DNA of 64,000 nt from Alphaproteobacteria bacterium (GCA_017471445.1 JAFUTJ010000015.1:25352-89351), one strand, 5' to 3'; counted from the first letter of the stretch, positions 3,658 through 63,941 are shown. Program-made: numbers and translations. The notes: generated from the sequence alone by a model not told the origin.

Positions 3658-3666
3658 AGGGTAAAC

Positions 3667-4101: not shown

Positions 4102-4104
4102 TAA

Positions 4105-5343: not shown

Positions 5344-5377
5344 AATTTCCCCCTTTCTGTTTCACGAATAAAAAATT

Positions 5378-5484: not shown

Positions 5485-5597
5485 ACATTAATATCGATGC
5501 AAAACATGGAATATTCTTTGAATTACGATGTTCGGCATCGGTGTGATAAAGGCTTTCTGACAGCCCCAAGGTTGATTTCCATCAAACCTTAATAAGT

Positions 5598-5626
5598 ATT
5601 ATATTTTATATGGTGTATAAAAACAA
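5598..5626 (-). promoter_or_regulatory. Candidate sigma70-like promoter for family A paralog 1 (TTGTTT-17-TATAAT on minus strand)
   Basis: Read on the minus strand: TTGTTT, a 17-nt spacer, then TATAAT. It lies about 110 nt upstream of the conserved leader element. This is pattern only. Confidence 0.25.
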
Positions 5627-5634
5627 TATCTAAA

Positions 5635-11336: not shown

Positions 11337-12338
11337 CTAATTCACCATCTGTAATTTCCCGCCCTGCCCCCGTTTTGCATTAATCCAACACGTTGCATCG
11401 CCGCGTGGTACCGCCATGGCGTATTTGGTATGCTTTTCGGCGTATATATTTATTCCGTTCATTGCGGTTTCACCAATCCGGCACAGTGGTAAACACCGGT
11501 CATCGGATGTGTGACCGAATCCATCATCGCATTCCCATGGGCAATTTGGTGTGCCATCGGTTGTATTTGCGGCGGTATAGTGTGCATTTGCCGGTGCGTT
11601 TGTGCATGGCATGCAATCTGATGCCGCGGCGGCGGTATCCGTTGCCGTATACGTGCCAACCGGACAATTATTAGTTAACGTCACAACATCAGATGAATAA
11701 TAACCCCAACCAACAGGAATACATTTTATATTTGCCGCATCATCAAAACTCTTAAATGTCATATAATAATAACTTAAATTACTATAATTCGTTAGTGTCC
11801 TAAAATTAAACCAATACCCTGTATCACAAATCGGGAAACGCTGAATAGACGATGTTAAATTAAAATTACATTTATATGTTGCATTAACAGATGTAAAAGA
11901 AGAATTGGTGTCATTGTATGCGCATGAAAAATAACTGTATCCATGGTCAATTTTTACAACAAAATTAACTTCACAACGGGTAATGGATTCAACGACATTA
12001 TCACCATTAACCCACGAACTATACTTGTGTAAATAATCTATATGGTCTGAATCAATTTCTGGGCATCGCATTCGTAAATCATTACCTGGACAATAATACG
12101 ATGGTGTTTCACCATTACTGCGATTACATGGTTGGCACGTGCCCGTATCATCCAACCAATACCCCGCATCACACGTTGCGGCATGGGCATTGGTTAACAT
12201 GCACATGCCAAACACCACACCCCATGCACCAAAAAACCACCGTTTTTTGTGCACGGGTAAAGGAAAATAAAATGGCGGATTTCTGGGGCTTTGTAAAAAA
12301 CAATTTGTGCACCAAAAAACGGTGGTTTTTTGGTGCAC
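11337..12338 (-). CDS. Secreted cysteine-rich protein, family A paralog 2
   Basis: It starts on GTG at 12338 with AGGGAAAT as RBS. An alternative GTG start at 12254 would give a clean signal peptide, (V/M)HKKRWFFGAWGVVFGMCMLTNAHA. The mature N-terminus is ATCDAGYWL..C..C. The C-terminal 70 aa are nearly identical to paralog 3. Confidence 0.7.
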   Translation of the reverse strand: MHQKTTVFWCTNCFLQSPRNPPFYFPLPVHKKRWFFGAWGVVFGMCMLTNAHAATCDAGYWLDDTGTCQPCNRSNGETPSYYCPGNDLRMRCPEIDSDHIDYLHKYSSWVNGDNVVESITRCEVNFVVKIDHGYSYFSCAYNDTNSSFTSVNATYKCNFNLTSSIQRFPICDTGYWFNFRTLTNYSNLSYYYMTFKSFDDAANIKCIPVGWGYYSSDVVTLTNNCPVGTYTATDTAAAASDCMPCTNAPANAHYTAANTTDGTPNCPWECDDGFGHTSDDRCLPLCRIGETAMNGINIYAEKHTKYAMAVPRGDATCWINAKRGQGGKLQMVN

Positions 12339-12403: not shown

Positions 12404-13207
12404 CTAATTTACCGGAACCAATTTACCACCCTGCCCCCGTTTTGCACTAATCCAACATGTTGCGCCACCGCGTGGTACGGCCATGGCGTATTTGGTATGC
12501 TTTTCGGCATATATGTTAATACCGTTCATTGCGGTTTCACCAATCCGACACAGTGGTAAACACCGGTCATCGGATGTGTGACCGAATCCATCATCGCATT
12601 CCCACGGGCAATCGTTTGCGTCCTTAATTGTGCCATCCACACTATCTGGTGTACCGGGGCCGGTATAGTGCGCATTTGCCGGCGCGTTGGTGCATGGTTT
12701 TACGCCATTGTACCAAACTTTATACGTGGTACTTCTATATGGCGATAGATAATAACCGGTTCCCGCCTCATAATAATATACGCATCTAACGGGGTATTCT
12801 TGCTTGGTTGTGTCGTATGCAACCTCTGACAGGCAACTATAATTCTTAAAAACAAAAAATGTATGGCGCCAACAGTTTGTAATTTTGGAACGCGCCGCCT
12901 GTGACGAACCGTCATACGTAAATCCTGTGCCCCAAGAAGACACTCCGGGCCTCAACTCCTCTATGAAAGTATCATCAAGAAACTGGTCATATTTTCCAAT
13001 ATATTTATCTTCGGGGCATTCGTATCTGATATCATCACCCGGACAATAATATGCATTTTCGCAATATGTACATTCGTTTTCAGTATTCAGATAAAAATTT
13101 GCCGGACAATTTGCGGCGCGGGCCGTGCCGACACCGCCAAACGCCACCAGCGCAAAAATCGCCATACCGCAAATTTTACGTTTATTATAACATATAAATC
13201 TTGTCAT
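12404..13207 (-). CDS. Secreted cysteine-rich protein, family A paralog 3
   Basis: Signal peptide MTRFICYNKRKICGMAIFALVAFGGVGTARA. Mature N-terminus ANCPANFYLNTENECTYC. The conserved C-terminal module is CPWECDDGFGHTSDDRCLPLCRIGETAMNGINIYAEKHTKYAMAVPRGGATCWISAKRGQGGKL. RBS GGGGGA. Confidence 0.75.
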   Translation of the reverse strand: MTRFICYNKRKICGMAIFALVAFGGVGTARAANCPANFYLNTENECTYCENAYYCPGDDIRYECPEDKYIGKYDQFLDDTFIEELRPGVSSWGTGFTYDGSSQAARSKITNCWRHTFFVFKNYSCLSEVAYDTTKQEYPVRCVYYYEAGTGYYLSPYRSTTYKVWYNGVKPCTNAPANAHYTGPGTPDSVDGTIKDANDCPWECDDGFGHTSDDRCLPLCRIGETAMNGINIYAEKHTKYAMAVPRGGATCWISAKRGQGGKLVPVN

Positions 13208-26844: not shown

Positions 26845-27525
26845 ATGGCATACATGTGGAACGAATTCAATATAAAACCAATACGTGCGGAAACAATTGT
26901 TTACCGCGATGGTGTATTTTTACCAGACGTGTCAACAATTGAAAACGGGCCAATTAACCGTAAATATGGATTGCCGGTACATGTTATTTATGTTGGTGAA
27001 ATTACCGGCGAAAATGCATTAAATATTGAAATAAACATTGAAAACCAACCGGTGTTTTTATCGGTAAACATAACAAATAAAACACCAACAATTTTTAATA
27101 TTTTTGTAAAAAATACCGGTAAAAAATCTGACTTTCGCGCGCACGTAATGTTAAATAATTCGGGTGAATTAAATTACCAATGCACGGCGCACCACACGGC
27201 CCCAGAAACAACAATTTTATTTCAGACAAAATTAATTGCCAACCGCGATTCAAAATCTAAAATTGCCGGCACGGCAATAATTGATAAAAATTGCGATGAT
27301 TGTATGTCCGACATCGGGTTTACCGCAATGGCAGACCGTTCGGCAAAAATATCATTTTTACCGGCCCAACGAATATTATCTGTACCACAACGGGCCGACC
27401 ATGGTGCGGCAATATACCGCCCAACCGATGCCCAGGTTTTATATTTGCGTGAATCCGGCCTATCCGGGGCAGAGGTTGATGATACCATGAAAGTGGCGTT
27501 CATGAACGATTTCGATTTATTCTGA
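26845..27525 (+). CDS. SufB/SufD-family protein (short, stand-alone)
   Basis: The C-terminus PTDAQVLYLRESGLSGAEVDDTMKVAFMNDF resembles the conserved SufB/SufD C-terminal helix (eQLFYLrSRGisEeeA...). No sufBC genes are adjacent. Confidence 0.45.
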   Translation: MAYMWNEFNIKPIRAETIVYRDGVFLPDVSTIENGPINRKYGLPVHVIYVGEITGENALNIEINIENQPVFLSVNITNKTPTIFNIFVKNTGKKSDFRAHVMLNNSGELNYQCTAHHTAPETTILFQTKLIANRDSKSKIAGTAIIDKNCDDCMSDIGFTAMADRSAKISFLPAQRILSVPQRADHGAAIYRPTDAQVLYLRESGLSGAEVDDTMKVAFMNDFDLF

Positions 27526-28449
27526 TTCCCGCCCATAAATAAATTCACTGGTACCGGAATTTTGGTGGAATTTTTGTTCCATCATGTCCCACATACCGTT
27601 ACTGGGCACCGTGTAATCGCCGATTCGTAATCCCGCCGGCACCGGAACCATGGTACGAATAATATCGTTAGAACGGCTGATGGTTATATCATATAGTTTT
27701 GCGATTGTTTTTGTATCACTGCTCGGATGAAGTAAAGTTATATTCTTGTCATTACCGTCAAAGTCAAAATAATTTATGTTTCTTACAACATCATCAAATA
27801 TAATATATCCAGAATTATTATAATTAAACATCAATGTGTATTTGTGATTCATAACAAGTTCATTAACCGATAATACCGGATTAGAATAACCAGAACCAGG
27901 CCCATAACCACAGGTAAATAACGTAACCCCATTATTGGTTCCACAATAAAAATGCGGGGAATATGTCGCAAATATTGGCGATGCCAGTTCGGTCAATTGA
28001 ATATATGCAAAATGCGTTTTAACGCCAACATTGTTTGCAGGGACAACATTTGTGCGAATTAATTGTTCACCGCTTGATTGAATATACACATCTGGGTCGG
28101 CATTAATCAGTTTACCGCCCGCAATTGTGTACCATGGACTGTAATCTGCGTGTAATACAATGTCGTGCGTATATGCGTACGGAATTGTTGTATTTGATGT
28201 AATAATTGTGTCACTGTCACCCACACGCCATGCGGGCGCATTGTTACAACCAACACCGGTTGTAAAGTTATTACCATACGCGGTGCTTTGTTGTGTTGGG
28301 GCATTCCCACCCGCCGGACAATCGTATGTTACGGTATATTGTTTCGGTATACAGAACTTTACATTTTCTGGTAATTCGGCATTTGCATTTGCCCAGAACA
28401 ACATCAAACCAAACAACACAGAAAACAACGATGATAATTTGTGTGTCAT
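27517..28449 (-). CDS. Secreted protein, family B paralog 1
   Basis: It starts at MTHKLSSLFSVLFGLMLFWANANA (signal peptide). Residues 1 to about 115 are nearly identical to 45659-46630. The rest is homologous but diverged (PHFYCG, FNYNNSG.IIFD, VPxGLRIGxYxVPxNGM, IYGR). Confidence 0.75.
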   Translation of the reverse strand: MTHKLSSLFSVLFGLMLFWANANAELPENVKFCIPKQYTVTYDCPAGGNAPTQQSTAYGNNFTTGVGCNNAPAWRVGDSDTIITSNTTIPYAYTHDIVLHADYSPWYTIAGGKLINADPDVYIQSSGEQLIRTNVVPANNVGVKTHFAYIQLTELASPIFATYSPHFYCGTNNGVTLFTCGYGPGSGYSNPVLSVNELVMNHKYTLMFNYNNSGYIIFDDVVRNINYFDFDGNDKNITLLHPSSDTKTIAKLYDITISRSNDIIRTMVPVPAGLRIGDYTVPSNGMWDMMEQKFHQNSGTSEFIYGRESE

Positions 28450-28690
28450 ATCTTTTTTTCCTCCCTGTTCCTTTATTTTTTCTAATAAAAAATATCCCAC
28501 GCGAAAACCGCAGTGGTTGGAGGTTCATAACTACAATAAGGTATAGCGGGCCTATTCAATATATTCAGCACCCCTCCAACCAAATTTAGATTGGAGATTT
28601 ACTATCGCCGCCCATACGGCAATACCTTATTTCAGGGTTATGACGCCCCAACACGTGCGAACACGCGTCGCGATAATATTAAATCATATT
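28450..28690 (-). promoter_or_regulatory. Conserved 5' leader of family B genes (copy 1) with long hairpin GGTTGGAGG...CCTCCAACC (28515-28581)
   Basis: Immediately upstream of the ATG, 74 nt are identical to 45585-45658. A 9-bp inverted repeat encloses about 50 nt. Further upstream similarity extends to the GCGACG...TGGGGCGTCA block. Confidence 0.45.
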
Positions 28691-36061: not shown

Positions 36062-38296
36062 ATGGCAGAGAAATTCAAGATTTTATCAGCGGGCGGTTCA
36101 TCCAAGGGCCTGAATATATTCAAGTCCGATGCCTATAAAGAGCACGAGCGCAAGCCCATGGCCCAGATTTTCTGGTCGCTGCGCTGGGCAATTGGTATAT
36201 GGCTGGCGGCCGCGGCGGCATTTTGTCTGGCCTTTATTGCGGAACATTTCTGGCGATACGGTTTTTCACCTGCATCATGGCGATGGGCGGGGTTATATAT
36301 GCGTGGTGTCATTATGACGTGCGGATTATCGGTCGTTGCCGAAATACCCGCGTGGATAACGCGCAGTATTGTTCGTGCCGATTTTGCCTGTATCGCACCA
36401 TTGTTGCCAATAATTGCGTATTATTTCCTGTCTGATAAAACATTGACCGGTGAATTTAACCCGTATGGCAAAGATAAATTTGACGAAAAATCATCAAACA
36501 AGGCAACCGCCGACGATATTAAGAAAATGGGTAAAGGCAAAGAAGGACTATTTGCCGGGTTTATGATGGTACTGGGATATTTCAAAAAAAAGCCGTTGAT
36601 GATGGATGAATGCCTGTCTGCATTGTGTGTTGCCCCCCCGGGAACCGGTAAAACCCAGGCTGTGTGCATCCCCACAATCTTGGAATGCAATAATGTTTCA
36701 ATGATTATCAACGACCCAAAACCGGAATTAAAACAAAAAACAAGTGCATATCGCGCAACCGTTGGACCGGTATTTATAATGAACTGGGCGGGCCAAGATG
36801 ACCCAGAACGCGGCGTTTATTATCCGTCGTGGAACCCGCTGTCGCCCGAACATGTTCCGTTTAACCAAGAACAACGCGACCTGTATATCGATTCAATTTG
36901 TAATGTATTGGTGCCGGACGCAACGGGGTCATCCGCCGACCCACACTGGACAATTTCTGGACGGGCGGCGTTATCAGGTATGATTCAATTCATCGTATCA
37001 AAAATTGAACGCGCCAAGGCAGATGATTATTTCTTTGCGCGTATGCAATCAGGCGAATTTAATTCCGAAGACGCAACCGTTTTACAGGATTATTATCTGT
37101 CTATGCGTGACGACCCGAACGCATATGCGGCGTTGGCAATGCTGCAACGCGGGGAATTGAATGCAACAAATTATGTACATGTTGGAACATGGGCAAATAT
37201 TCCAGACGCATGGTTAGGCAAAGAATCATCGTTATCTATGATACTGGACTGGTTAAATGCGGCGCAATTGGCCAACGCCCAAGAATTGGAAGAACGCCGC
37301 CGCGCCGGTGACCAAATGGTTATGATGGCCGACCCAATGAAAGATGTTTTGGAAAACGCCGTGAACGAGGCACGTCGTTATTCATACGCGCACCGCGCAG
37401 TTTTGGAATTAACACAACTGGCAAACACACCAGATAAAGAACGCGGTTCTATTTTATCAACCGTTATGGCGGGGTTATCAATATTCCGTAATGCCGCGGT
37501 TCGTAACCGGACCAGTCATTCTGACTTTCACTTTGCAGACTTACGCGGTCTGCGCGACCCACGCGACGGAAAAATTAAGCCAGTTACGGTGTACCTGTCC
37601 ATTAACATGGTCGATGCCGAGGCGTTAAACCCAATTACCGGTATATTTATTGAATTAATGTCATCTTTCTTGTTGGCCAATGCACCAGAACAAATGCGCG
37701 ATGGCGTACGCATGGGGCCATACCCGGTGTTATTTGTATTGGACGAAATGCCCAAAATGCAAAAGTTACAAGCGGTGATTCAGGGACCCGACCTGGGGCG
37801 TGGGCAACAGATTTCATACCTGATTATCGGCCAGGATTTACACCAGATTCAAGAAAAATATGGTGCAGATGCGGCGGCAACAATTATCTCTACCACTGCG
37901 GCAAAAATTGTTCTGCGACAAAACGACCCAGATTCTGCCAAACGATTTTCAGATATGATGGGTTATAAAATGAAAGTCAAAAAGGTCAAGGGTGCCGACG
38001 GCAAAGAAACCGAACAAACCGGTGAAGAATTATTATATTCACCAATGGATATTATGAAGTTGGATGATAACAAACAACTGGTTATATTCCAGGGATGGTA
38101 CCACCGCCCGATAGAGGCAGAAAAACGCTATGCATACAAAGATGCGAAATTGGCGCAATTTATGTCCATGGGTGAATCAACACCATTACCAGAATTTTTG
38201 ATACCATCGCATCATGCGGCAATGGGATATGACGGTACGCCACGCGTATATAACCCAATGACACACGAAATACGCATGGTTAATGTCGGTGGCTAA
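36062..38296 (+). CDS. virD4: Type IV secretion system coupling protein (VirD4/TraG family)
   Basis: It has two N-terminal TM helices, Walker A (VAPPGTGKTQAV) and Walker B (VLFVLDEMPKM), and is 744 aa. The first ~150 nt use noticeably GC-richer codons (aag, ctg, gag) than surrounding genes. Confidence 0.85.
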   Translation: MAEKFKILSAGGSSKGLNIFKSDAYKEHERKPMAQIFWSLRWAIGIWLAAAAAFCLAFIAEHFWRYGFSPASWRWAGLYMRGVIMTCGLSVVAEIPAWITRSIVRADFACIAPLLPIIAYYFLSDKTLTGEFNPYGKDKFDEKSSNKATADDIKKMGKGKEGLFAGFMMVLGYFKKKPLMMDECLSALCVAPPGTGKTQAVCIPTILECNNVSMIINDPKPELKQKTSAYRATVGPVFIMNWAGQDDPERGVYYPSWNPLSPEHVPFNQEQRDLYIDSICNVLVPDATGSSADPHWTISGRAALSGMIQFIVSKIERAKADDYFFARMQSGEFNSEDATVLQDYYLSMRDDPNAYAALAMLQRGELNATNYVHVGTWANIPDAWLGKESSLSMILDWLNAAQLANAQELEERRRAGDQMVMMADPMKDVLENAVNEARRYSYAHRAVLELTQLANTPDKERGSILSTVMAGLSIFRNAAVRNRTSHSDFHFADLRGLRDPRDGKIKPVTVYLSINMVDAEALNPITGIFIELMSSFLLANAPEQMRDGVRMGPYPVLFVLDEMPKMQKLQAVIQGPDLGRGQQISYLIIGQDLHQIQEKYGADAAATIISTTAAKIVLRQNDPDSAKRFSDMMGYKMKVKKVKGADGKETEQTGEELLYSPMDIMKLDDNKQLVIFQGWYHRPIEAEKRYAYKDAKLAQFMSMGESTPLPEFLIPSHHAAMGYDGTPRVYNPMTHEIRMVNVGG

Positions 38297-38310: not shown

Positions 38311-39567
38311 TTGAGACAGCATATAACCATCTTGTTCGCGTTAATATTGTCTGCATGCGGCGCATCTTTTGAAATGCGCATGGATGTGGCGCGCCATGCA
38401 ACATTGACCGGTGATTTCGCCACGGCAAATGAATTTGCGGCCAATTCCGATGTTTCCAATATGAATGATTTGGAATTATTGGTAACGGGCGGTGCATTAT
38501 TTAATATGGGAAATTATTCCGCATCGGATGCCGCGTTCGAAGAATTTAACCACCGCAATATTAACATGACCGGATTTTCTGTGTCACGTGAAATGGCAAC
38601 TGTTTCCGGTGGTGCAATGGCCGCCCAATACCGGCCGTATATGATGGATTCACTGTTCGTGTCGTATTACCAGATTTTAAGTGCACTGGCCGAAAACCGG
38701 TGGTCGGATGCACGTGTAATAATAAATCAATCGTATGCGCGGCAACAAAAAATGTCGCGTGAATATAAACAATTACTGGCCAATCGGAAAAACGACACCG
38801 CCACAGCCGCACAATTGGCCGAAAATATTCGTAATGAAAATTCACAATGGGCGGCATATGCCGATATAATGAACCCTGCATTAACATATTTGGCGGGTAT
38901 TTATTTCTTGGCCGACCACGATTGGGCAAATGCAGAAACATACCTGGGACGGGCAGATGGTATGACGCAAAACACCCAATGCATTGCAACAGATTTATCA
39001 ATGGCCCGCGCCAAGACCGCACCACATGACAACACATGGGTATTTATTGAAACCGGTATTGCCCCACGGTTAACAGAACGCCGCATAACCATACCATGGA
39101 TTGTTGGCAACGGCATGTCAATGATATCAATTGCAACCGCAACACCAAAATTTACAAACGATACAACGCGCATATCGGGCGGCGAATTAATCGCAGACAT
39201 TGATAAAATGTTTATGACAGAATTTAATGAATACAGCGTAAATAACGCCATACGCGCGGCAATTGGTGCCGCCGCACGCGCTGTATTACAATCGGTTGCA
39301 TATAATGGCAATTCACGTTATTCGCCGTTGTTTGGATTGGGGGCAACAATATTTTCGGTTGCAACCACATCGGCCGATGTGCGTTCGTGGGCAACATTAC
39401 CCGAATATATATATGTAATGCGCACGGATACACCAAAAAGCGGCTTGCTTGAAATAAAAGCAAATGGTAATGTGATTGCAAACGTACCAATGCCGAATGC
39501 CGGTAATCACATCGTATATATACGCGTTGGCGTAAACACGACCGCACACGTTATGGATTTAAGATAA
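38311..39567 (+). CDS. Lipoprotein, uncharacterised (possibly the COG3014-type protein often encoded next to LpoB)
   Basis: Lipobox LSAC in MRQHITILFALILSACGASF. 418 aa. It starts 14 nt after the virD4 stop. Confidence 0.55.
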   Translation: MRQHITILFALILSACGASFEMRMDVARHATLTGDFATANEFAANSDVSNMNDLELLVTGGALFNMGNYSASDAAFEEFNHRNINMTGFSVSREMATVSGGAMAAQYRPYMMDSLFVSYYQILSALAENRWSDARVIINQSYARQQKMSREYKQLLANRKNDTATAAQLAENIRNENSQWAAYADIMNPALTYLAGIYFLADHDWANAETYLGRADGMTQNTQCIATDLSMARAKTAPHDNTWVFIETGIAPRLTERRITIPWIVGNGMSMISIATATPKFTNDTTRISGGELIADIDKMFMTEFNEYSVNNAIRAAIGAAARAVLQSVAYNGNSRYSPLFGLGATIFSVATTSADVRSWATLPEYIYVMRTDTPKSGLLEIKANGNVIANVPMPNAGNHIVYIRVGVNTTAHVMDLR

Positions 39568-45439: not shown

Positions 45440-45658
45440 TTGATGCGACGTATTGTCGCATTGGGCGTCAGAACCCATAGAGGTGTCGGGATTACACCGA
45501 CAATTAAAATTCCAGCCGGCTATTTATCGGTTGGAGTGTGTGGAATATTTAGAATAACACACGCAATTCCTCTAATTGTTCTGAAGCTCCAACCACTGCG
45601 GTTTTCGCGTGGGATATTTTTTATTAGAAAAAATAAAGGAACAGGGAGAAAAAAAGAT
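45440..45658 (+). promoter_or_regulatory. Conserved 5' leader of family B genes (copy 2) with hairpin GGTTGGAG...CTCCAACC (45529-45594)
   Basis: The 74 nt before the ATG are identical to copy 1, and the upstream GCGACG...TGGGCGTCA block is shared. It contains the RBS GGAACAGGGAG. Confidence 0.45.
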
Positions 45659-46630
45659 ATGACAGGCAAATTATCATCATCGGTGTTTTATGTGTTGTTT
45701 GGTTTGATGTTGTTCTGGGCAAATGCAAATGCCGAATTACCAGAAAATGTAAAGTTCTGTATACCGAAACAATATAGGGTAACATACGATTGTCCGGCGG
45801 GTGGGAATGCGCCAACACAACAAACCACCGCGTATGGTAATAACTTTACAACCGGTGTTGGTTGTAACAATGCGCCCGCATGGCGTGTTGATGACAGTGA
45901 CACAATAATTACATCAAATACAACAATTCCATACGCATATACGCACGACATTGTATTACACGCAGATTACAGTCCGTGGTACACAATTGCGGGCGGACGG
46001 CTGATTAATGCCGATGCGGATGTGTATTTAAACAACAATCTTTCTGCATACGCATCATATGGCATTGATACGGGTGTAATGTCCACAAATAATATCGGAT
46101 GGGCAATTAATTTTACATATGAACAATTCAGAAATAGCGAAACACCAGAACATATTATTGGAACAATGTTCCCACATTTTTATTGTGGAATTGATACGGC
46201 CCATACTGGTTTTCTTTGCGCCTGTGGCCCAGAGGCCGGTTATGGAAACGGCATTGAAAACTACACAAATATGATTGTCGGCAAAAAATACAATCTGTTA
46301 TTTAACTATAATAATTCTGGCAAAATTATTTTTGATTACACGACCAATCTTGATTTATCGTGCACAGAATTGAATAACACGATTGGTAACACAATACGTT
46401 TGTTTCGTTCAACATCACAAAACGTAAATGCAACCAGCACGAATAATTATAGCATGGCAAAAATATATGATGTAAAAATCAGCGATGGCCAAACAATGAT
46501 TCGTAATTTTGTGGCGGTACCGTCGGGTCTGCGCATTGGTAATTATATCGTTCCAAAAAACGGCATGTTTGATATTGTTGAACAGAAATTTTATCAACCT
46601 GTTGCGAATATGATATATGGGCGCGATTAA
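45659..46630 (+). CDS. Secreted protein, family B paralog 2
   Basis: The start is at MTGKLSSSVFYVLFGLMLFWANANA (ATG at 45659, RBS GGGAG). The ORF-track start at 45440 is an in-frame upstream extension through the leader. The N-terminal 115 aa are nearly identical to paralog 1. Confidence 0.75.
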   Translation: MTGKLSSSVFYVLFGLMLFWANANAELPENVKFCIPKQYRVTYDCPAGGNAPTQQTTAYGNNFTTGVGCNNAPAWRVDDSDTIITSNTTIPYAYTHDIVLHADYSPWYTIAGGRLINADADVYLNNNLSAYASYGIDTGVMSTNNIGWAINFTYEQFRNSETPEHIIGTMFPHFYCGIDTAHTGFLCACGPEAGYGNGIENYTNMIVGKKYNLLFNYNNSGKIIFDYTTNLDLSCTELNNTIGNTIRLFRSTSQNVNATSTNNYSMAKIYDVKISDGQTMIRNFVAVPSGLRIGNYIVPKNGMFDIVEQKFYQPVANMIYGRD

Positions 46631-49095: not shown

Positions 49096-49453
49096 GCCCA
49101 GATATAAAATGGAATTTTACAATTATAAGAAAACACTTATATACCGCTAAGAACTAAACGACTTGCTTTTTTTGGTATCTTTCACAATAATAGTAAATGA
49201 ATCCAATGGGAATTGGGTTTGGGGCATTAGCGTGCCCGTTTGCATCCGGTGCGATTGCGTCGTTAAAAAAATATATTTTACAACACTTTTGCACCGAATT
49301 TTGTCATTGTTCCCCGAACGTTGGTCTGGGGTGCCGGTGGTTATACAACAGGTTTCTAAACCAAAGGCCATCCGGGTCATTGATGCAAATGATACGCTAA
49401 CACCCCGACCATCAATTTCCGTTGATGGTTTTTATTTTTTTATGGGGGAAATT

Positions 49454-50332
49454 ATGAAAAAATTTATTCTTATTTTGATATGCATGAACATAACACTGCC
49501 ATGCTTTGGCAAATTTAAAATACAAGACAGCAATTCATGCGTTATTGATACATATGGGCGCAATAAGTATTGGTTCTGTGGGTCAACAAATAAAACAAAA
49601 TGTGGCTCTACAACATTCTCTCGCGATAATCGCGAAGCACGTGATATGACACATGGCGAAGTTGTAACAGATTATCGCGCACGTGGTACGCATGACCATT
49701 ATAATTTGTTATGTTGTGTGGTTGATGGCAAGGGATTCTTTAAGTACACAACCAAGAGCAAGGCGAAACCAGCCGAATTAAAAAATGAATACATATCGGA
49801 AAATATTACAATTAAAACAGACGAAGGCGGATCATGTACATATGTTAAAACCGTTGATACATGCGGCAATATTATTTCTGATATACCATGCACCGCACGT
49901 GACGACTGTCAAAGCGATGAAATTGTTCGTAATAAAAAATGTGTTAAACCATGCACAGAACCATTGGTGTTTTTTTCGCCAGATGTTGATACATGTGTTA
50001 ATTGTGAAGAAACAAATTACCAAGGTATCGCAATGGACAGCCAAGGCCACAAATATTGCAAAAAATGTGCAGACAACGAAATATGGTTAAAAACCAAAAA
50101 AGACTGTGTAAAAAAAGAAACTTTGACCATTGTGAACAAGGTTGATATGCAAAGATGTTGGCAATGCAAAAGCGTTGATTCATTCAGAAAATGCGCACTG
50201 GGCGAAGATGTTACATGCGGGTCATCTGCATCAACCGGCACAGAGAAAAACAAGCAAACAATACCAACACCAACACTGAAACGTGTTGAAACGGGCCCAA
50301 TACAAAATCTGGGCAAAGTAATTCCGTTTTAA
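49454..50332 (+). CDS. Secreted cysteine-rich hypothetical protein (292 aa)
   Basis: Starts MKKFILILICMNITLPCFG with RBS GGGGGA. It has about 30 Cys, many in CxxC pairs (CVNCEE, CKKCAD, CWQCKS). The ORF-track start at 49163 is an upstream in-frame extension. Confidence 0.6.
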   Translation: MKKFILILICMNITLPCFGKFKIQDSNSCVIDTYGRNKYWFCGSTNKTKCGSTTFSRDNREARDMTHGEVVTDYRARGTHDHYNLLCCVVDGKGFFKYTTKSKAKPAELKNEYISENITIKTDEGGSCTYVKTVDTCGNIISDIPCTARDDCQSDEIVRNKKCVKPCTEPLVFFSPDVDTCVNCEETNYQGIAMDSQGHKYCKKCADNEIWLKTKKDCVKKETLTIVNKVDMQRCWQCKSVDSFRKCALGEDVTCGSSASTGTEKNKQTIPTPTLKRVETGPIQNLGKVIPF

Positions 50333-52615: not shown

Positions 52616-55015
<2,400 letters not shown>

Positions 55016-55181
55016 TTATTTTCCCTTTCTTTTTATCGTGAAAAACATAGCAATTTCTGCTATAATTATCAAGAAAATTTATGATTTTGGATTGCCGTTT
55101 TCTGATTCATAATTTATGCAAGCAATGAAGCCGGAAATCCAAAACCAAGCCCCAGGAATAACATACAAAGGATTTATAAAC

Positions 55182-55751
55182 ATGAAGTTTAAGTTACTGT
55201 ATTTTGGCGATATTTATATCAACCCCAAAAAACGTGCCCAACATATTTCTGATATTCGGATGCAATTTCATCCGCAATTAAAAAAATTGGTGGAACACAG
55301 TCCGTGGAATAACCTGACACAATTTATGATGCCCAACCCAACCAAAAGCCCCATTACAACCAAACACGTCGGTGGCATCGACTGGAACCCGATTATAACG
55401 CCGAACCTGAAATTAATTGCGGAATTAGATATTCAGATGTTACATCCGGAAATTGTTGGCGTGTCACGGTCTGATATTGACAACCGCATAAAAACATTGT
55501 TTGACGGCCTGCGCGCACCACAAAACGAACACGAAATCGGCGAAAATACACCACGTGATATTGGGCCAATTTATACGTTACTGGACGATGACCATTTGAT
55601 AACGAAACTGTCGGTAAATACATCGCACCTGTTATCATCTGATATGTTTTCATGCGACATTCCACGCAGCCCAGATTCAATATTTATGATGATTGACGTT
55701 AATGTCCGCGTTGCAGAGGGAACATTAGAAAACCTGCCGTTTATGGTATAA
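55182..55751 (+). CDS. Hypothetical protein
   Basis: 190-aa ORF from MKFKLLYFGDIY, with an upstream in-frame extension to 55116. No recognisable motif. Confidence 0.4.
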   Translation: MKFKLLYFGDIYINPKKRAQHISDIRMQFHPQLKKLVEHSPWNNLTQFMMPNPTKSPITTKHVGGIDWNPIITPNLKLIAELDIQMLHPEIVGVSRSDIDNRIKTLFDGLRAPQNEHEIGENTPRDIGPIYTLLDDDHLITKLSVNTSHLLSSDMFSCDIPRSPDSIFMMIDVNVRVAEGTLENLPFMV

Positions 55752-55829
55752 TGGTTGTTGGTGATTGGTTGTTGGTACTATGTGCTTAATTTCATAATTG
55801 TGAAATTAGTCCCAATATACCAACAACCC

Positions 55830-56900
55830 CTAATTAAACATTGCCGTTATTTGGTCTTGCATTTGGAATGTACCGAATATTACCCATGCGATTATCAATG
55901 ACACTAATATAATTCCAATATTATTTAATGCAGATGACACCGCGTCCATTTTGCGCACAGATTCATCCAAGTAATCATTTGCAATGCGGGTTAAATTCTG
56001 GTCAAAATCTGTCATATCTGCGTATATTTCCAAATCACCAATAATTTCGGAATTTGGAAACCCGCGCCCGGTGCCATTTAACGCCGACCCCAAGTTTTCA
56101 CCATTTGCAATTCGTCGCAGTGTGGCATCCAATATTGACCGTAAATACCGGTTGGAATTATCGGCCAACATGCGCATTGCATCGGGCAATGTAATACCCG
56201 CCGCAACCAATGCCGCCAACCCGGTCAACCAACCGACCGATTCCTGAATCTTGTATATATTCCATGGTGGCAAATCGTCAAAGCGCGCACGCATTTTACC
56301 CGACCAATTTGGTAAACTGAATGCGATAATCAAAACCAGCGTCACAAACCCGATTGCAATTATATACCAATATGCCCCGGCAAAGTTTGACACCCATACC
56401 AAAGATGCGGCCACGCCACGCCACGCGATATTATTGCCTGCAACCGCGGCCAATGGCGGCACCAAATAAATTCCAACCATTATTATTATCGCGATTGTTA
56501 ATGCAAACAAAAACAACGGGTACGCAACCGCCCCCATAAATGCCCGCCGTATGCGACCAATGCCACCCACCATGCGTTCCAGGTTTTCCAACGCAACAAC
56601 CAAACTGGAAATATTCCCCGATGTCAGCAGCAGTGTTTCATTCGGTGCCATCCACCCGCGGGTGGCATCAGAAAAACTCATCCCGCGTTCCAGATTCTTT
56701 TGCCATTGACGCATAACAATTGCAAATGGTTCATGTGGATTTTTTCCACCGTTTGATTCAATCCGTTCAATCCGCCCCAGCGCATCCATCAATGTAAAAT
56801 CGTTCCGCAACAGCGATGCCAGTTTTCGCGCAACAGACATACGCTTGTTCGTGTTCATACGAAACACCAACCGCGCATAAGATAATTCCAGGCGGTTCAT
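55830..56900 (-). CDS. Type IV pilus/T2SS inner-membrane platform protein (GspF/PilC/TcpE/BfpE family)
   Basis: 356 aa with three TM helices and T2SSF-type repeat architecture. It lies directly downstream of the PilB/GspE-family ATPase. Confidence 0.7.
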   Translation of the reverse strand: MNRLELSYARLVFRMNTNKRMSVARKLASLLRNDFTLMDALGRIERIESNGGKNPHEPFAIVMRQWQKNLERGMSFSDATRGWMAPNETLLLTSGNISSLVVALENLERMVGGIGRIRRAFMGAVAYPLFLFALTIAIIIMVGIYLVPPLAAVAGNNIAWRGVAASLVWVSNFAGAYWYIIAIGFVTLVLIIAFSLPNWSGKMRARFDDLPPWNIYKIQESVGWLTGLAALVAAGITLPDAMRMLADNSNRYLRSILDATLRRIANGENLGSALNGTGRGFPNSEIIGDLEIYADMTDFDQNLTRIANDYLDESVRKMDAVSSALNNIGIILVSLIIAWVIFGTFQMQDQITAMFN

Positions 56901-56901
56901 A

Positions 56902-58539
56902 TTAATACACCCCCGGCTGGTTCAATAACCCGACCCAACGTTCCAATTCATCAACGCCGATTATACCCTTTAACATTAATTCCGTGGCGGATTCTTTCAA
57001 TGTGCGGCCATCCATTTCTTCCAACCAATATTTTATTGCCGCATCTGTATCGCCGGATAATGCCAATGATAAAAATTCACCATTTGTTATTATTATTTCG
57101 CCGGCCTTGATACGACCAATTGTGCCGGTACCGTTACATTCGCGGCACCCTGCCCCACGAATATAAACCTGACGCAAGCCCAGTTCACCAAACATATCAC
57201 GCACGCGATTGTACGCCGGGTGTTCCGGGTGGTCAATTAACCGTTCGCGACAATGTGGGCACAGTTTCTTGAACAAACGCATTGATATCAGCCCACGCAT
57301 CAGCGTTTCTTCCTTTAACTTGAAACTTTCAACCCCCATGTCCAGCAATCGCGTCAACGCCGCAATGGCGGAATTGGCATGCAATGTTGTCCAAACATTA
57401 TGCCCCGACAGTGCCGCCCGAACCGTCAACTGGGCCGCAGATAACGTACGAATTTCACCAACCATCATTGTATCTGGGTCACTGCGCAGGGCCGCGGCCA
57501 ACGCTTCGGTATATTTTTCATCACGCTGTTCTTCGTTTACGGCATTAACAACCGGCATTTGGTGTGCACCAAAAATCTTTTGTTCAACCGGGTCTTCGAC
57601 CGTAATCATATTTATTTCATAATGCCGTTCTTTTAGCATTAATGACATATTATGAACCAATGTCGTGGATTTACCAGAACTTGTTGGCCCCGCAACAATT
57701 ACCAACCCCGTCGGGAACGACCGCATACGCGCCAACAGTTTTTGTTCATATTCGCCAAATTCCTGTTCGGTTTTAATGCCTGCACTGGGGTTATCATACA
57801 ACAGGCGCATTACAACATATCGCGTGCCGAATGCAACCGGATTAAATTGCATACGTATACTTAAAATACCATTCGGCAGATACAGGTCTTTTGTTCCACG
57901 CAATGGCGTGCGCCCATCTTTCTGGGCCGATTGATATTCATTTTGCGCATAGTTTGCATTTGACATATCTGCCGACGCAAACGCCGCACGAACAAAAGAT
58001 TCACCCCAACCGGAATTATATTCCAAAACAGGTTGCATACTGCCATCAATGCGAAAATATATTGTGGTCTGGTCGGCAACTTCTATATGAACATCAGATA
58101 CCTTTTGCGCGGCAGCACGCGCGATAATGTCAACAAAATCCTTTTGCATTTGGTTATCAAAATCTGTGCGGGCACGCGCACCCCCACCCAGTTTCGATTC
58201 ATGAACCTTGTAAATACTGGAAACCAAACCCAAATCAGAATAAAACGGCACACGAACATTACTGGTCCGACGATGAATCAGGTCAACAAATGCCAATACC
58301 CGTCCATCATAACGATGTGTACGCGATATTATCAATTCACCCCCAGAAAAATATGCAACCAAACTTTGCATATCTTTGGACAATTCCATTTCGGCACCGG
58401 TTGCAGTCAACAGCCGATTTCCGTTGGAAAATAAATAATCAACAATATCTTTGTTTTCTGCACTGTCCAATCCCGCCGGAATTGACGGTTGCGACGCATC
58501 GGGAATATTGTTCAAGATATCTTTTTCTTTATAACGCAT
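56902..58539 (-). CDS. Type IV pilus/T2SS assembly ATPase (GspE/PilB/TcpT/BfpD family)
   Basis: Walker A VAGPTSSGKSTTL, Asp/His boxes, Walker B MMVGEIR. Tetracysteine zinc motif CPHC...CREC. 545 aa. Confidence 0.85.
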   Translation of the reverse strand: MRYKEKDILNNIPDASQPSIPAGLDSAENKDIVDYLFSNGNRLLTATGAEMELSKDMQSLVAYFSGGELIISRTHRYDGRVLAFVDLIHRRTSNVRVPFYSDLGLVSSIYKVHESKLGGGARARTDFDNQMQKDFVDIIARAAAQKVSDVHIEVADQTTIYFRIDGSMQPVLEYNSGWGESFVRAAFASADMSNANYAQNEYQSAQKDGRTPLRGTKDLYLPNGILSIRMQFNPVAFGTRYVVMRLLYDNPSAGIKTEQEFGEYEQKLLARMRSFPTGLVIVAGPTSSGKSTTLVHNMSLMLKERHYEINMITVEDPVEQKIFGAHQMPVVNAVNEEQRDEKYTEALAAALRSDPDTMMVGEIRTLSAAQLTVRAALSGHNVWTTLHANSAIAALTRLLDMGVESFKLKEETLMRGLISMRLFKKLCPHCRERLIDHPEHPAYNRVRDMFGELGLRQVYIRGAGCRECNGTGTIGRIKAGEIIITNGEFLSLALSGDTDAAIKYWLEEMDGRTLKESATELMLKGIIGVDELERWVGLLNQPGVY

Positions 58540-58542
58540 TTT

Positions 58543-59253
58543 TTATTTTGTACTGGCAATATTCAAGGTTTGCTTTTTACCGTCTTTCTCAAAAACGACA
58601 CCTTCGTCCAAAGATATCGATTTTACGGTAAACCCATCCAAGGTGCGACCAACACTTACACGTTTGTTTTGGCCAGAATCCATATCTGCCAATGTTGCCT
58701 GTAATTGATTACCGGCACCAATTACGTTTACTAATTTATATTTATCAACAATCTTGAATTCGTCTGTATCTTCTTCGGCCGCGGTGGATTTTGCGCGCGA
58801 TGCAGATGTACGCACCGGTGCAGTGGCCGGCTTTACATCACCCGACATCAGGTTTTGTTTTTCCAATTCCAATTTCGCCGTTTCGTTTTCTAATTTTGCC
58901 TTTTCCATTTCGAATTCTTGCTGCTGCTGTTCGGCCCGGCCAGACAGCGTATCAATTTCCATATGCAATTTTATTTTTTCTGCGGCCAAGCGGTCCAATT
59001 CCAAATCCAACTGGGCACGTTCTTTTTCCAATTGCATTAATATTTTTTCTTGTTCCAAATCTGTAATTTGTTGAAACAGTGAACCCGATACATCATAATC
59101 TGCAACCGCCGCCGCAGATGGGTCAACCACATCTGATTCAACCAGGTCATCGGTCAATAAATCTGCATCATCTGCCGCGTACACGCATGGCGCGACAATT
59201 GTGAATATGCCGAAAACCATTGCCATAAAAAATAATTTCTTGTTATTTTGCAT
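58543..59253 (-). CDS. Secreted coiled-coil protein with PilP/GspC-HR-like C-terminal domain (putative pilus assembly component)
   Basis: Signal peptide MQNNKKLFFMAMVFGIFTIVAPCVYA. The central region is a coiled-coil rich in E, K and L. The C-terminus YKLVNVIGAGNQLQATLADMDSGQNKRVSVGRTLDGFTVKSISLDEGVVF follows the PilP/GspC pattern. Confidence 0.45.
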   Translation of the reverse strand: MQNNKKLFFMAMVFGIFTIVAPCVYAADDADLLTDDLVESDVVDPSAAAVADYDVSGSLFQQITDLEQEKILMQLEKERAQLDLELDRLAAEKIKLHMEIDTLSGRAEQQQQEFEMEKAKLENETAKLELEKQNLMSGDVKPATAPVRTSASRAKSTAAEEDTDEFKIVDKYKLVNVIGAGNQLQATLADMDSGQNKRVSVGRTLDGFTVKSISLDEGVVFEKDGKKQTLNIASTK

Positions 59254-60502
59254 AAATTATCACCTCATAGTTCCATGTGCGATTTGTCGCGTTCCATTCT
59301 GTACGTGTCATATATACACCACCAAAATCATCAAAGATTTTCATAAATTGTGACGGTATTAATTTTGATGCCGCCGCAATTTCTAATACGTTTACATTAA
59401 CGGTTTCAACGCCATTTGTAATGGTATCAACCACAACATCAATATCGGGTGTTATGTCTATACCCTGAAATATCGTAGATATATTGCGAACAATTGTGTC
59501 GGCATCGCGTTCGTCTTGGGATGCATGTGTTGCAATTTTTGGCAATACCGCACGAACGGTTAATGCACTGTCGCCACGTTCTTGGACAATTGCACCCGGC
59601 ATTAAATCGCCCGCAACAACATAAAAATCGCCCAACGTTCCATAATCGCGCCGAAATTCAACCGTTGCATCGGATTCATCACACCGAACAGACACCTGAA
59701 TCCACCCAGGAATTGGCTGCATCAAAAATCCCATTGCCTGGTAACACAAATCTGCGCGTTCATACACATCTGGTAAATTATCGTATGGCAATACCAAGGG
59801 TTCCGGCACATTCTTTTTTATTTCATATTCCGCATCTAACTGACGATTACTTTCTTCAACCTGGCGTTTATATTCCGCGGCCAATTCTGGGTCAATATGT
59901 GCAATTTGTGGACGCGGGGCAAATACCTGAACCAATGAATCACGGTATAACCAAAATACACCCACCGCAAACGCACATAATAACAACAGCGAAAATAATA
60001 TTGTTCGTGCACGACTGATATACCGTAACACGCCCGCATGTCGTCCGTCTAAGACATCGGCCAATGTACGTTCAACCGCCCGCGGTGCGCCCCATGCCGC
60101 CGGTGCAACAAACGCACCCCAATCCGGCATTTCGGCCAATGCAAAATATTCACGACGTGCGTCGGATTCATGCATAAAAATTTTGTCTGCCAAAATTATC
60201 CCGTTACGCGCCGCGACCAATATATACGCGCCGTCGTTATAAAACATTGCCAAAAAAGATGAATATTCTGGGAATACCGCCATAATATCCGCAGCAATTG
60301 ACGGCATGCCACTGCGGTGTCCCATACGACGCGCCCCCAATCCAATCATATTATGCCATGAAACGAACAAATTAAATCGCGCATCAACCACACGCGCCAA
60401 CGCCCGCGCAGAATTGCGCGCCGGAACATTTGCGTCACTTGGTTGCCAAAACAAACCAACTGCGTATTTTTTGCGGTTAACTGATATAACTTGGGCGGCC
60501 AA
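59243..60502 (-). CDS. Bitopic inner-membrane assembly protein (GspL/BfpC/TcpR/R64-PilO-like, putative)
   Basis: 419 aa. It has a cytoplasmic N-domain of about 170 aa, a single TM helix (ILFSLLLLCAFAVGVFWLY) and a periplasmic C-domain. Its 3' end overlaps the start of the PilP-like gene. Confidence 0.4.
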   Translation of the reverse strand: MAAQVISVNRKKYAVGLFWQPSDANVPARNSARALARVVDARFNLFVSWHNMIGLGARRMGHRSGMPSIAADIMAVFPEYSSFLAMFYNDGAYILVAARNGIILADKIFMHESDARREYFALAEMPDWGAFVAPAAWGAPRAVERTLADVLDGRHAGVLRYISRARTILFSLLLLCAFAVGVFWLYRDSLVQVFAPRPQIAHIDPELAAEYKRQVEESNRQLDAEYEIKKNVPEPLVLPYDNLPDVYERADLCYQAMGFLMQPIPGWIQVSVRCDESDATVEFRRDYGTLGDFYVVAGDLMPGAIVQERGDSALTVRAVLPKIATHASQDERDADTIVRNISTIFQGIDITPDIDVVVDTITNGVETVNVNVLEIAAASKLIPSQFMKIFDDFGGVYMTRTEWNATNRTWNYEVIIYAK

Positions 60503-60587
60503 GATTCTCTCTCTATCTTAAAAATCTATGGCAATTATAACACAAAAATATAAACCTTGGCAAACCATTTAAGTGGTATGCCAAAGA

Positions 60588-61037
60588 TTAATAACTGGAT
60601 TCATAAATTGTTGTTGTACATGCCGGTGTGCCACATGGTGTATCAACAACCGGCGCAACCACAACATCACGCGGTGACGCATCATAATAAATCGTCCCCG
60701 GTTGTACACGCCCAACACGCGGACAATCATAAACATTTGCCGTTAAAACGAACGAACGTTCTGGGCCAAACATAACCCATTCATTTGGTTTTGTACGCTG
60801 GCTGGTTATCAAATATGCATTACCGGGCCGCGCCTGGTCTGCGATACGATTTTCCAGATATACACGCGCATCATCGGCATCATACACAGATGCCTCGGAT
60901 TCCAATTTATACAAAAACGTACAACCCGACGGTTCGGCATCCAATTGGGTTAAATATTCACTGCCATTTTGATTCTTGATGTAACCACCACATGCACACA
61001 ATCCCAACACAGATACAAATGCCAATAATTTTTTCAT
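60588..61037 (-). CDS. DUF4156-like lipoprotein
   Basis: Starts MKKLLAFVSVLGLCACGGY (lipobox, AGGAGG RBS). The pattern PSGCTFLYKLES...GNAYLITSQ...ANVYDCP resembles the DUF4156 signature (GCxFLG.V.GS...GAN.V...AY.CP). Confidence 0.45.
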   Translation of the reverse strand: MKKLLAFVSVLGLCACGGYIKNQNGSEYLTQLDAEPSGCTFLYKLESEASVYDADDARVYLENRIADQARPGNAYLITSQRTKPNEWVMFGPERSFVLTANVYDCPRVGRVQPGTIYYDASPRDVVVAPVVDTPCGTPACTTTIYESSY

Positions 61038-61073
61038 CTTGTTTTCCTCCTGTATCAACACAAACCAATTACA

Positions 61074-62006
61074 CTATACTATATCATAATTGACCGGGTC
61101 GCTAAACAACTTTTTCAAGACCAGATTGTTTAACGCGTGACTGCCCTTGTACGATATTAAATCGCCACAAATCCATCCACCCGATGTTGCCATATCGCCA
61201 ATTGCATCAATTATTTTGTGCCGAACAAATTCATCAGGCCAAATTGTCTTGTTTAACGTTCCATCGCCCGTATTATTTAATGCAATAACATTGTGTTCAT
61301 TTGCCCCACGCCCCATTCCATGTTTTTTTAGATATTCCCATTCAGAATATTTTCCAAACGTGCGCGCACGCGCAATATCACGAACAAATGTTCGAACAGA
61401 TTTTTTTGTACCATCAAACACATATTCATAAGATTGCCGCCCAATTATTTTTTCTGGATAAACCAATGTTGCACGCACGCGCAGCACACCATCATTATTT
61501 GGGCGCAATTCCACAAACCCATCGCTTTTACGACCCGCAATACGATTTATAAACCACCACTTTATACGTGTAAGAATGGGCAATGTACGATTTATTTCTG
61601 CCGCACGCGCAATAACAGATCGCCGCACAATAATACGCTTATGCGAAAATACGCCATCGGTAACCGCCGAAATATCACGATAGAAACAATCTGCACTGCC
61701 ATCTAAAATTGGGGTTTCTGGGCCATCAATTTTTATTTTCACAGAATCTACACCGGCGATAAACAACGCCGCCATTAAATGTTCAATTGTCTGAACATGT
61801 GCGCCATGCGGTGTGCCAATTGTTGTGTTACGCATACGACTTTCACCCACATTGTCATATCGCGCATTAATCGCACCAGAATTCGGTATATCGGTGCGAT
61901 AAAAAGAAATACCATCACGCTTTGCCGGGCAAATTGTCATGTGAACCGGCAACCCAGAATGAATACCATGGCCAACAATTTTAATTTTTTTTGTTACTGT
62001 ACCCAT
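61074..62006 (-). CDS. lpxC: UDP-3-O-acyl-N-acetylglucosamine deacetylase
   Basis: MGTVTKKIKIVGHGIHSG...TTIGTPHGAHVQTIEHLMAA and the C-terminal HALNN motif. 310 aa. Confidence 0.9.
   Translation of the reverse strand: MGTVTKKIKIVGHGIHSGLPVHMTICPAKRDGISFYRTDIPNSGAINARYDNVGESRMRNTTIGTPHGAHVQTIEHLMAALFIAGVDSVKIKIDGPETPILDGSADCFYRDISAVTDGVFSHKRIIVRRSVIARAAEINRTLPILTRIKWWFINRIAGRKSDGFVELRPNNDGVLRVRATLVYPEKIIGRQSYEYVFDGTKKSVRTFVRDIARARTFGKYSEWEYLKKHGMGRGANEHNVIALNNTGDGTLNKTIWPDEFVRHKIIDAIGDMATSGGWICGDLISYKGSHALNNLVLKKLFSDPVNYDIV

Positions 62007-63864: not shown

Positions 63865-63941
<77 letters not shown>

Follow-up and report, generated by a model that had tools for sequence, protein, structure and literature searches.

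This report concerns a block of four genes for a type IVb pilus-like assembly motor, found in a 64,000-nucleotide (nt) stretch of DNA from an alphaproteobacterium (GCA_017471445.1, JAFUTJ010000015.1:25352-89351), which we call the window and number from its first letter. An earlier reading, made from the bases alone and referred to below as the original prediction, had described four co-directional, overlapping or abutting genes on the minus strand. Open reading frame (ORF) calling over the 64-kb window recovered exactly these, as four tightly packed minus-strand ORFs spanning 55830-60502. In the direction of transcription the features, with protein lengths in amino acids (aa), are as follows.

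60534-60563, minus strand: candidate sigma-70-type promoter (TTGCCA, 18 nt, TG-TATAAT), a consensus match only
59243-60502, minus strand: pilO2-like gene, 419 aa, TTG start, PF06864
58543-59253, minus strand: pilP-like gene, 236 aa, TIGR03021
56902-58539, minus strand: gene for a pilQ2-like assembly ATPase of the GspE/PilB class, 545 aa, PF00437
55830-56900, minus strand: gene for a pilR2-like platform protein, 356 aa, PF00482

The pilO2-like and pilP-like genes overlap by 11 nt and the remaining two junctions of the block are gaps of 3 nt and 1 nt, which is the packing expected for a single operon. The candidate promoter sits in the 85-nt gap between a lipoprotein gene and the pilO2 start; a consensus scan ranked it as the top site within 55000-61300, with 11 of 12 positions fitting and an extended -10 element. 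On this side the block is flanked by a DUF374-domain gene, lpxK, lpxC and the gene for the 157-aa lipoprotein (60588-61061), and on the other side by a 211-aa gene on the opposite strand (55116-55751) followed by gyrB. The flanks had been anticipated as lpxC with a small lipoprotein and a hypothetical gene with gyrB, and this was correct; the further naming of the lipoprotein as DUF4156 could not be reproduced, since Pfam returned no match to it at E <= 1. The 211-aa product is cytoplasmic and gave a weak hint of RusA (E = 0.2).

The first gene of the block encodes a protein that scores 40.4 bits against PF06864, the PilO family of R64-type pili, and so passes its gathering score of 26.7. When a profile built from 20 members of the PilO family was compared with all PDB sequences it retrieved 3vhj (E = 2e-6) and 4byz (E = 2e-4), the cytoplasmic domains of BfpC and of Burkholderia PilO2Bp, respectively. 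An AlphaFold (AF2) model computed on the family alignment (mean predicted local distance difference test score, pLDDT, 88.8) has an N-terminal alpha/beta domain, one transmembrane helix at about residues 162-185 and two periplasmic alpha/beta modules. A fold search of the PDB with the N-terminal domain of this model again returned 3vhj (E = 4e-9, TMt 0.81) together with 4byz/4bz0, and no other significant matches. The profile and model evidence identifies the 419-aa product as a PilO2/BfpC-type bitopic protein with a cytoplasmic actin-like domain. The public record MBR1380548.1 (403 aa), which is 100% identical over 96% of the window's PilO, carries the NCBI name 'type 4b pilus protein PilO2'.

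The second protein scores 43.5 bits against TIGR03021 (pilP_fam), above the cutoff of 34.65. A helix at its N-terminus, serving as signal or anchor, is followed by ~80 residues of coiled coil (~56-136) and, at the C-terminal end, by a beta domain (~172-230). In an AF2 model made from the single sequence the C-terminal domain has a pLDDT of ~80. The leading Foldseek matches of this domain were the homology region of GspC (GspC-HR) in its complex with GspD (3oss_C, probability 1.00, TMt 0.77) and the PilP structures 3jc8_Pa, 2lc4, 2ivw and 2y4y. Probabilities were 0.98-1.00 and E-values weak, the best being 0.018. A PilP profile run against PDB sequences returned coiled-coil noise only. By family score and modelled fold, the 236-aa protein is assigned to the PilP family, and its C-terminal domain resembles the secretin-binding GspC-HR/PilP fold.

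The third protein belongs to PF00437 (T2SSE; E = 8e-66) and carries a Walker A motif at residue 284, an Asp box at 312, Walker B at 354 and a His box at 385, as well as a tetracysteine site made up of CPHC at 427 and CREC at 465. Its nearest solved relative is BfpD (8dze, 261 bits over residues 38-529), ahead of GspE (157 bits), PilF (154), PilB (133), PilT (92) and DotB (51). The protein fell below every NCBIfam equivalog cutoff tried (GspE, PilB, TadA and VirB11), with 229.6 bits against TIGR02533 for GspE (cutoff 630), 196.8 bits against TIGR02538 for PilB (cutoff 675.65) and 38 bits against TIGR03819 for TadA (cutoff 373). GenBank names the same ATPase (MBR1380546.1) 'Flp pilus assembly complex ATPase component TadA'. 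We rejected a TadA or Tad-Flp identity, the TadA model being far under its cutoff and the tetracysteine site and N-terminal extension being those of the GspE/PilB/BfpD class; judged by these features, the GenBank name is misleading.

The last protein of the block matches PF00482 (T2SSF; E = 3.5e-22) in two stretches that correspond to two T2SSF repeats, and has transmembrane segments at 129-147, 178-196 and 324-342. It scores 61.9 bits against TIGR02120 for GspF (cutoff 424), and its homologues from related loci reach 243 bits against the platform protein of a type IVb cluster on a Bosea plasmid. Its repeats and membrane segments mark it as a three-transmembrane platform of the GspF/PilC type.

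These four family assignments (PF06864, TIGR03021, PF00437 and PF00482) bear out the original prediction of a bitopic protein, a PilP-like protein, a GspE/PilB ATPase and a GspF/PilC platform, and with it the likening of their order to pilO-P-Q-R of R64. Two outcomes named in advance as refuting it, an ATPase that clusters with a non-pilus family and accessory proteins lacking GspL/BfpC/PilP-type folds, were looked for and neither was found. Two other identities for the block were rejected. For a type II secretion system, the GspE and GspF models are far below their cutoffs, GspL and GspM gave no match and no pseudopilin operon (GspG-K) was seen. For a type IVa pilus, the PilB equivalog is not reached, and the bitopic protein belongs to PF06864 and not to the PilM/PilN/PilO (PF04350-type) families.

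We next consider the host. A metagenome scaffold of 204 kb (ERZ28655174) and several further contigs encode an ATPase identical to that of the window, and a scan with the PilO alignment, taking one genome per species, found 345 stretches encoding a relative. The figures that follow on lineage, synteny and PilO identity of the block refer to the best 80 of these 345 stretches. All 80 come from gut metagenome-assembled genomes (MAGs) labelled Candidatus Enterousia, Alphaproteobacteria, Rickettsiales, 'proteobacterium' or 'bacterium', and the window is from Candidatus Enterousia, gut bacteria of the order Rs-D84. Genomes of this group are mostly smaller than 1 Mb and lack most biosynthetic pathways, and a partner-dependent lifestyle has been predicted for them (PMC12306168). 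The survey of these genomes makes no mention of a pilus in the lineage (PMC12306168), and no paper in the library searched for Enterousia or Rs-D84 together with pili describes one.

The genes for PilO, PilP, PilQ and PilR are contiguous in all 80 species loci, apart from three without PilR, where the contig probably ends. PilO is 54-64% identical to that of the window and conserved in length. Upstream, lpxC and the lipoprotein gene are present in 69 of the 80 loci; in the other 11 both are gone and the block is unchanged. The 211-aa gene adjoins gyrB in nearly all of the 80, inverted segments included. Both flanking hypotheticals were considered as members of the system and rejected, the lipoprotein because it is found only where lpxC lies upstream and the 211-aa gene because it is tied to gyrB in nearly all loci. 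Since the block survives changes of its flanks, and the flanking hypotheticals track lpxC or gyrB, the conserved unit is exactly the four genes. The retention of ~4.7 kb in a shrinking genome of less than 1 Mb argues that the block is under selection and has a function.

A motor of this kind needs further components, and the original prediction had called it an orphan with no pilin, secretin or prepilin peptidase. Locally this stands. Pfam scans of the ~47 large ORFs of the window revealed no secretin, A24 peptidase or pilin family, and two six-frame motif scans, the looser of which allowed Arg at +1, gave no prepilin candidate in the window. The window's own contig, when extended by ~4.5 kb past the high end (L001; such L-numbers label the related loci and contig stretches compared with the window) and by 10 kb past the low end (L175), again showed no pilin, secretin or TcpQ; apart from a RhuM-domain gene and a 660-aa hypothetical gene, this 14.5 kb of added flank contained nothing but housekeeping genes. 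The remainder of the window is ordinary chromosome (dnaG, topA, rodA, a PBP2-type gene, pheST, pnp, der, secDF and others). Across the genus the orphan status does not hold, since secretin, TcpQ and prepilin genes occur at other conserved sites.

The partner genes were sought with the TcpQ, secretin, pilin and peptidase of the Bosea (L007) and Escherichia coli (L008) plasmid type IVb clusters as probes. In the related contig L057 a type IVb secretin is encoded ~9 kb upstream of PilO, and its homologues form a tight family that carries the JGI annotation R64 PilN family. The full-length secretin has 545 aa and is matched best by far by TIGR02520 (PilN, type IVB; 256 bits), the next model being MshL (99 bits); in L089 its N-terminus carries a lipoprotein signal, LSGC. 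Immediately upstream of the secretin gene, at the two loci examined, lies the gene for a 300-aa TcpQ-domain protein (PF10671, 67 bits). A first search, which gave 65 proteins on contigs of <=11.5 kb, had suggested that the secretin is confined to a rare sub-clade. This was overturned by a metagenome scan in which at least 158 stretches encode it, some on contigs of 0.29-0.85 Mb (up to 851 kb). Among the best 80 of these (at least 158) loci the neighbours of the secretin gene are the TcpQ-domain gene (67 loci), rpsT (59), plsY (57), dprA (43) and dnaA (33). We also observed, divergent from and just upstream of the TcpQ-domain gene, a gene for a 178-aa protein with an N-terminal transmembrane helix (L089 8048-8584, minus strand) that has homologues in 57 of the 80 secretin loci; the protein has no family match and might be a further pilus component.

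The candidate filament subunit is a prepilin of a family found throughout the genus, with members at the following places.

L091 10001-10465: prepilin
L093 10001-10465: prepilin
L014 20017-20478: prepilin
L080 7998-8456: prepilin

In L080 and L014 the gene lies near that for PilO and the N-terminus of the product reads MKTESG|RSLIEV. A family search with two of these pilins gave 1234 members at E <= 0.001, with lengths of 152-159 aa and many on long Enterousia-type contigs. Of the best 120 of the 1234, 109 have a 5-residue leader plus Gly, 113 Arg at +1, 113 Glu at +5 and 117 exactly two Cys. At three further loci, which represent two pilins of the family and one of which is a 5.6-kb fragment, the prepilin gene stands alone, with uvrC on one side and a pseudouridine synthase gene on the other. 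The residue at +1 is typically Phe in type IVa pilins and Met, Leu, Val, Ser or Trp in type IVb pilins, from all of which the Arg of the genus pilin differs. The L080 locus also has three consecutive large prepilin-like genes on the minus strand (2023-5896; 439, 405 and 451 aa), the N-termini of which (RG|NVLVE, RG|ASITE and RG|NFLLQ) resemble class III signals. They had no homologues in any other fetched locus, and their products may be PilV-like tip or minor pilins.

Motor, secretin and pilin loci are linked pairwise on single contigs. Secretin and PilOPQ occur together in L057 and L158, pilin and PilOPQR in L014 and L080, and secretin and pilin in L097, L099 and L155, so that every pair among the three has been seen. 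In the Bosea and E. coli plasmid clusters the order is contiguous, TcpQ-secretin-PilO2-PilP-ATPase-platform. Because these clusters are contiguous in a matching order, the simplest history is an ancestral order TcpQ-secretin-PilO-PilP-ATPase-platform-pilins that was split during genome reduction, the operon being cut between secretin and pilO and the pilin genes moved. On these sequence comparisons, the motor is very probably one piece of a scattered and complete-looking machine and not a true orphan.

The closest parallels to the block are the R64 pilL-V operon, the pilL2N2O2P2Q2R2S2T2V2M2 operon of PAPI-1 and Tfp7 of Burkholderia pseudomallei, with which it shares PilO2, PilP, a GspE-class ATPase and a platform protein in matching order. 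The features that characterize an R64-type core are present: a PF06864 PilO2 with an actin-like cytoplasmic domain, a TIGR03021 PilP encoded directly after pilO, and a GspE/PilB-class ATPase and GspF/PilC platform after pilP. Outside the core, the TcpQ-domain gene placed directly before a PilN-type lipoprotein secretin in congeners recalls Tfp7 (pilV2M2S2R2Q2P2O2N2 plus TcpQ2), in which TcpQ2 replaces PilL2. Variant R64 operons with TcpQ2 instead of PilL2 and no peptidase gene have already been described, and the PilU2 peptidase is absent from the PAPI-1 and Tfp7 operons (PMC3984277); like these two, the Enterousia core has no peptidase gene beside it.

The Enterousia system nevertheless departs from the R64 group in several respects. 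It is chromosomal and distributed over at least three loci rather than one plasmid or island operon, the core sitting between lpxC and gyrB in conserved housekeeping synteny, and its host genome is smaller than 1 Mb. Homologues of PilT2 and PilM2 were not seen near the core, and large PilV-like prepilins were found only in L080. The pilin is short (154 aa), its leader has 5 residues and its +1 residue is Arg, in contrast to the long-leader PilS; a major pilin of the latter type (PF08805) was not found in the window, and the genus pilin matches that family below threshold. The system is a chromosomal, vertically inherited and fragmented type IVb pilus of the R64 type.

Two further comparisons place the block among type IVb systems more widely. 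The bundle-forming pilus (Bfp) of enteropathogenic E. coli supplies the solved structures closest to the ATPase (BfpD, aligned over nearly the full length) and to the PilO2 N-terminal domain (BfpC, cytoplasmic domain), and its bitopic anchor, ATPase and platform (BfpE) have analogous roles. Bfp, however, is a 14-gene plasmid operon with a peptidase (BfpP), a retraction ATPase (BfpF) and a long-leader pilin (BfpA), and the PilO2-like protein is only ~19% identical to BfpC. The clusters of Bosea sp. RAC05 pBSY19_1 and E. coli p2017.17.03CC_2 have homologous TcpQ, secretin, PilO2, ATPase and platform genes; unlike the Enterousia loci, they are contiguous and carry genes for PilV or pilins and for an additional, PilT-like ATPase, to which the E. 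coli cluster adds an A24 peptidase and a lytic transglycosylase. The PilO of the window is only 23-27% identical to the PilO of these plasmids. For the dispersed arrangement there is a parallel in the rvh type IV secretion genes of Rickettsiales, a multi-gene envelope machine that is scattered across a reduced alphaproteobacterial chromosome and still functional. The likeness is one of genome architecture only, rvh being a VirB/VirD4 type IV secretion system and not a type IV filament.

We conclude, with a probability of about 0.8, that the four genes form one operon on the Candidatus Enterousia chromosome and encode the assembly subcomplex, located in the cytoplasm and inner membrane, of an R64/Tfp7-type type IVb pilus. 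By homology with Bfp, R64, type IVa and type II systems, the PilQ2 ATPase hexamer would dock both on the platform PilR2 and on PilO2, through the actin-like domain that the latter has in the cytoplasm, and ATP hydrolysis would drive PilR2 to lift processed pilins from the inner membrane into the base of the filament. The periplasmic part of PilO2 would contact PilP, the C-terminal HR domain of which would bind the N0 domain of the PilN-type lipoprotein secretin, with the TcpQ-domain protein aiding secretin assembly. The predicted filament subunit is the genus-wide 154-aa prepilin with its 5-residue leader, Gly at -1, Arg at +1, Glu at +5 and one disulfide, and the partner genes would lie elsewhere in the window's own genome, beyond the 64 kb. 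An additional ATPase resembling PilT was not seen next to the core; retraction ATPases of their own are lacking in several functional type IVb pili. The pilus probably attaches the cell to a partner cell or host surface, fitting the predicted dependent lifestyle.

Several points weigh against this assignment. Neither the window nor its 14.5 kb of added flank yielded the pilin, secretin or TcpQ, so that their presence in the window's own genome is extrapolated from congeners with PilO only about 55-60% identical, and none of eight NCBI pilins lies near the MBR13805xx accessions of the MAG of the window's species. An A24 prepilin peptidase was detected in none of the fetched loci, which cover few genomic regions and were searched with phmmer using one E. 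coli plasmid peptidase and with a GxGD[VI]K scan, PlsY being the sole match to the latter. The pilin leader is short and type IVa-like, and PF08805 (R64/Typhi PilS) gives a sub-threshold hint of 17.7 bits against a cutoff of 22. The secretin is slightly under the TIGR02520 cutoff (256 against 288 bits). The fold match of PilP comes from a single-sequence model with weak E-values.

An extension of the preferred reading, that the R64/Tfp7-type pilus is the main organelle by which these cells stay attached to a partner cell or to the surface of the host, with uptake of material as a possible second role, using a short-leader Arg+1 pilin and possibly no canonical A24 peptidase, is put forward tentatively and is more doubtful than the assignment itself. 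A comparable role has reportedly been proposed for Saccharibacteria.

Of the alternatives, the one that survives best is that the motor is a secretion engine, either type II-like or exporting in the manner of TcpF and CofJ, in which the pilin would work as a short piston that pushes Sec-exported Cys-rich proteins from the periplasm through the secretin. Export of soluble proteins, TcpF and CofJ, is indeed a property of two type IVb systems, TCP and CFA/III. At least four Cys-rich proteins (~6% Cys) with Sec-type N-termini are encoded in the window, and in some congeners Cys-rich genes lie near the secretin or PilR (L057 2109-2963, L090 5270-6814 and L014 14684-17757). In the window, however, these genes are spread over distant positions, and in the gene order most common in the genus no Cys-rich gene adjoins the pil block. 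The components are specific to type IVb pili (PilO2/BfpC, a PilN-type secretin and TcpQ), type II models remain far below their cutoffs, no GspG-K-like set was seen, and the C-terminal region of the pilin is disulfide-bonded, as is typical of true pilins. We consider a secretion engine unlikely. The original prediction had itself suggested that the motor may power secretion of the Cys-rich families; these have ordinary Sec signal peptides and no specific linkage to the cluster was found, so that the suggestion is without evidence. The members of the family in the window, secreted proteins with ~6% Cys and no Pfam match, are as follows.

4450-5343, minus strand: secreted Cys-rich protein
11337-12338, minus strand: secreted Cys-rich protein
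12404-13207, minus strand: secreted Cys-rich protein
49163-50332, plus strand: secreted Cys-rich protein

Three of the four share, after the signal peptide, the pattern A-[TN]-C-[DP]-A-[GN]-[YF]-[YW]-L ... CPGDD.RY.CP. The window also encodes two paralogous secreted hypothetical proteins (27517-28500, minus strand, and 45440-46630, plus strand) with near-identical N-terminal regions, LSS..FxVLFGLMLFWANANAELPENVKFCIPKQY.VTYDCPAGGNAPTQQ.TAYGNNFTTGV, and no Pfam match.

A second alternative makes the pilus a helper of a conjugation or type IV secretion apparatus, comparable to the thin pilus of R64, that would stabilise contacts for a VirB/VirD4 machine encoded elsewhere. R64-type pili are classically tied to conjugative elements (PMC3984277), the window encodes a VirD4-type coupling protein (36062-38296), and in L004 and L006 VirB3 and VirB4 are encoded 5-9 kb from the pil block. 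Yet the flanks of the block are housekeeping genes in a genus-wide synteny, and no relaxase, integrase or type IVB secretion genes were seen adjoining it; the VirB genes are of the P type and not of the I type (Dot/Icm-like) that accompanies R64 thin pili; and a spacing of a few kilobases in a 0.9-Mb genome is weak evidence. We regard this explanation as very unlikely. The coupling protein, of the VirD4/TraG type and encoded on the plus strand, is followed at 38311-39567 by a gene whose 418-aa product begins like a lipoprotein and matches no family. Together with VirB3/VirB4 of the relatives (L004 1525-4245 and L006 1-1605), VirD4 looks like part of a P-type type IV secretion system whose genes are scattered as they are in Rickettsiales.

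That the four genes are a decaying, nonfunctional remnant of a complete pilus operon, as the lack of partner genes in the 64-kb window and its immediate flanks and the genome reduction of the host lineage might suggest, is extremely improbable, given that none of the four genes is truncated and their motifs are intact, that the block is kept with conserved lengths in 80 of 80 species loci, where its ~4.7 kb argue for selection, and that the partner genes are conserved in the genus as well.

Some features at the edge of the region deserve mention. Beyond the DUF374-lpxK-lpxC side of the block lies a strain-variable region, which in the window's species holds the RhuM-domain gene and the 660-aa hypothetical gene (L001 651-3883), and in L005 (1-6015) encodes RhuM, a tyrosine integrase, a helix-turn-helix protein and a group II intron-type reverse transcriptase. 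A tRNA-Met gene lies at this variable edge in the window (63865-63941), and the edge may be an integration hot spot.

The gene family described here is already known, and GenBank names PilO2 correctly; the variant features are the fragmented, chromosomal and vertically inherited arrangement, the short-leader Arg+1 pilin and the host genome of less than 1 Mb. For annotation, the lesson is that a locally orphan motor can be a fragment of a dispersed system. Rs-D84/Enterousia bacteria are widespread and uncultured, and the conservation in them of the motor block, the TcpQ-secretin pair and the pilin suggests that a surface filament is central to how they live, the three conserved loci being targets for metatranscriptomics, imaging and enrichment. 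If the pilus does prove to be the main organelle for holding a partner or host, this would explain why no species of the lineage, small as its genomes are (below 1 Mb), has lost the ~4.7 kb of motor genes, and Enterousia would be a natural minimal model of the type IVb machine.

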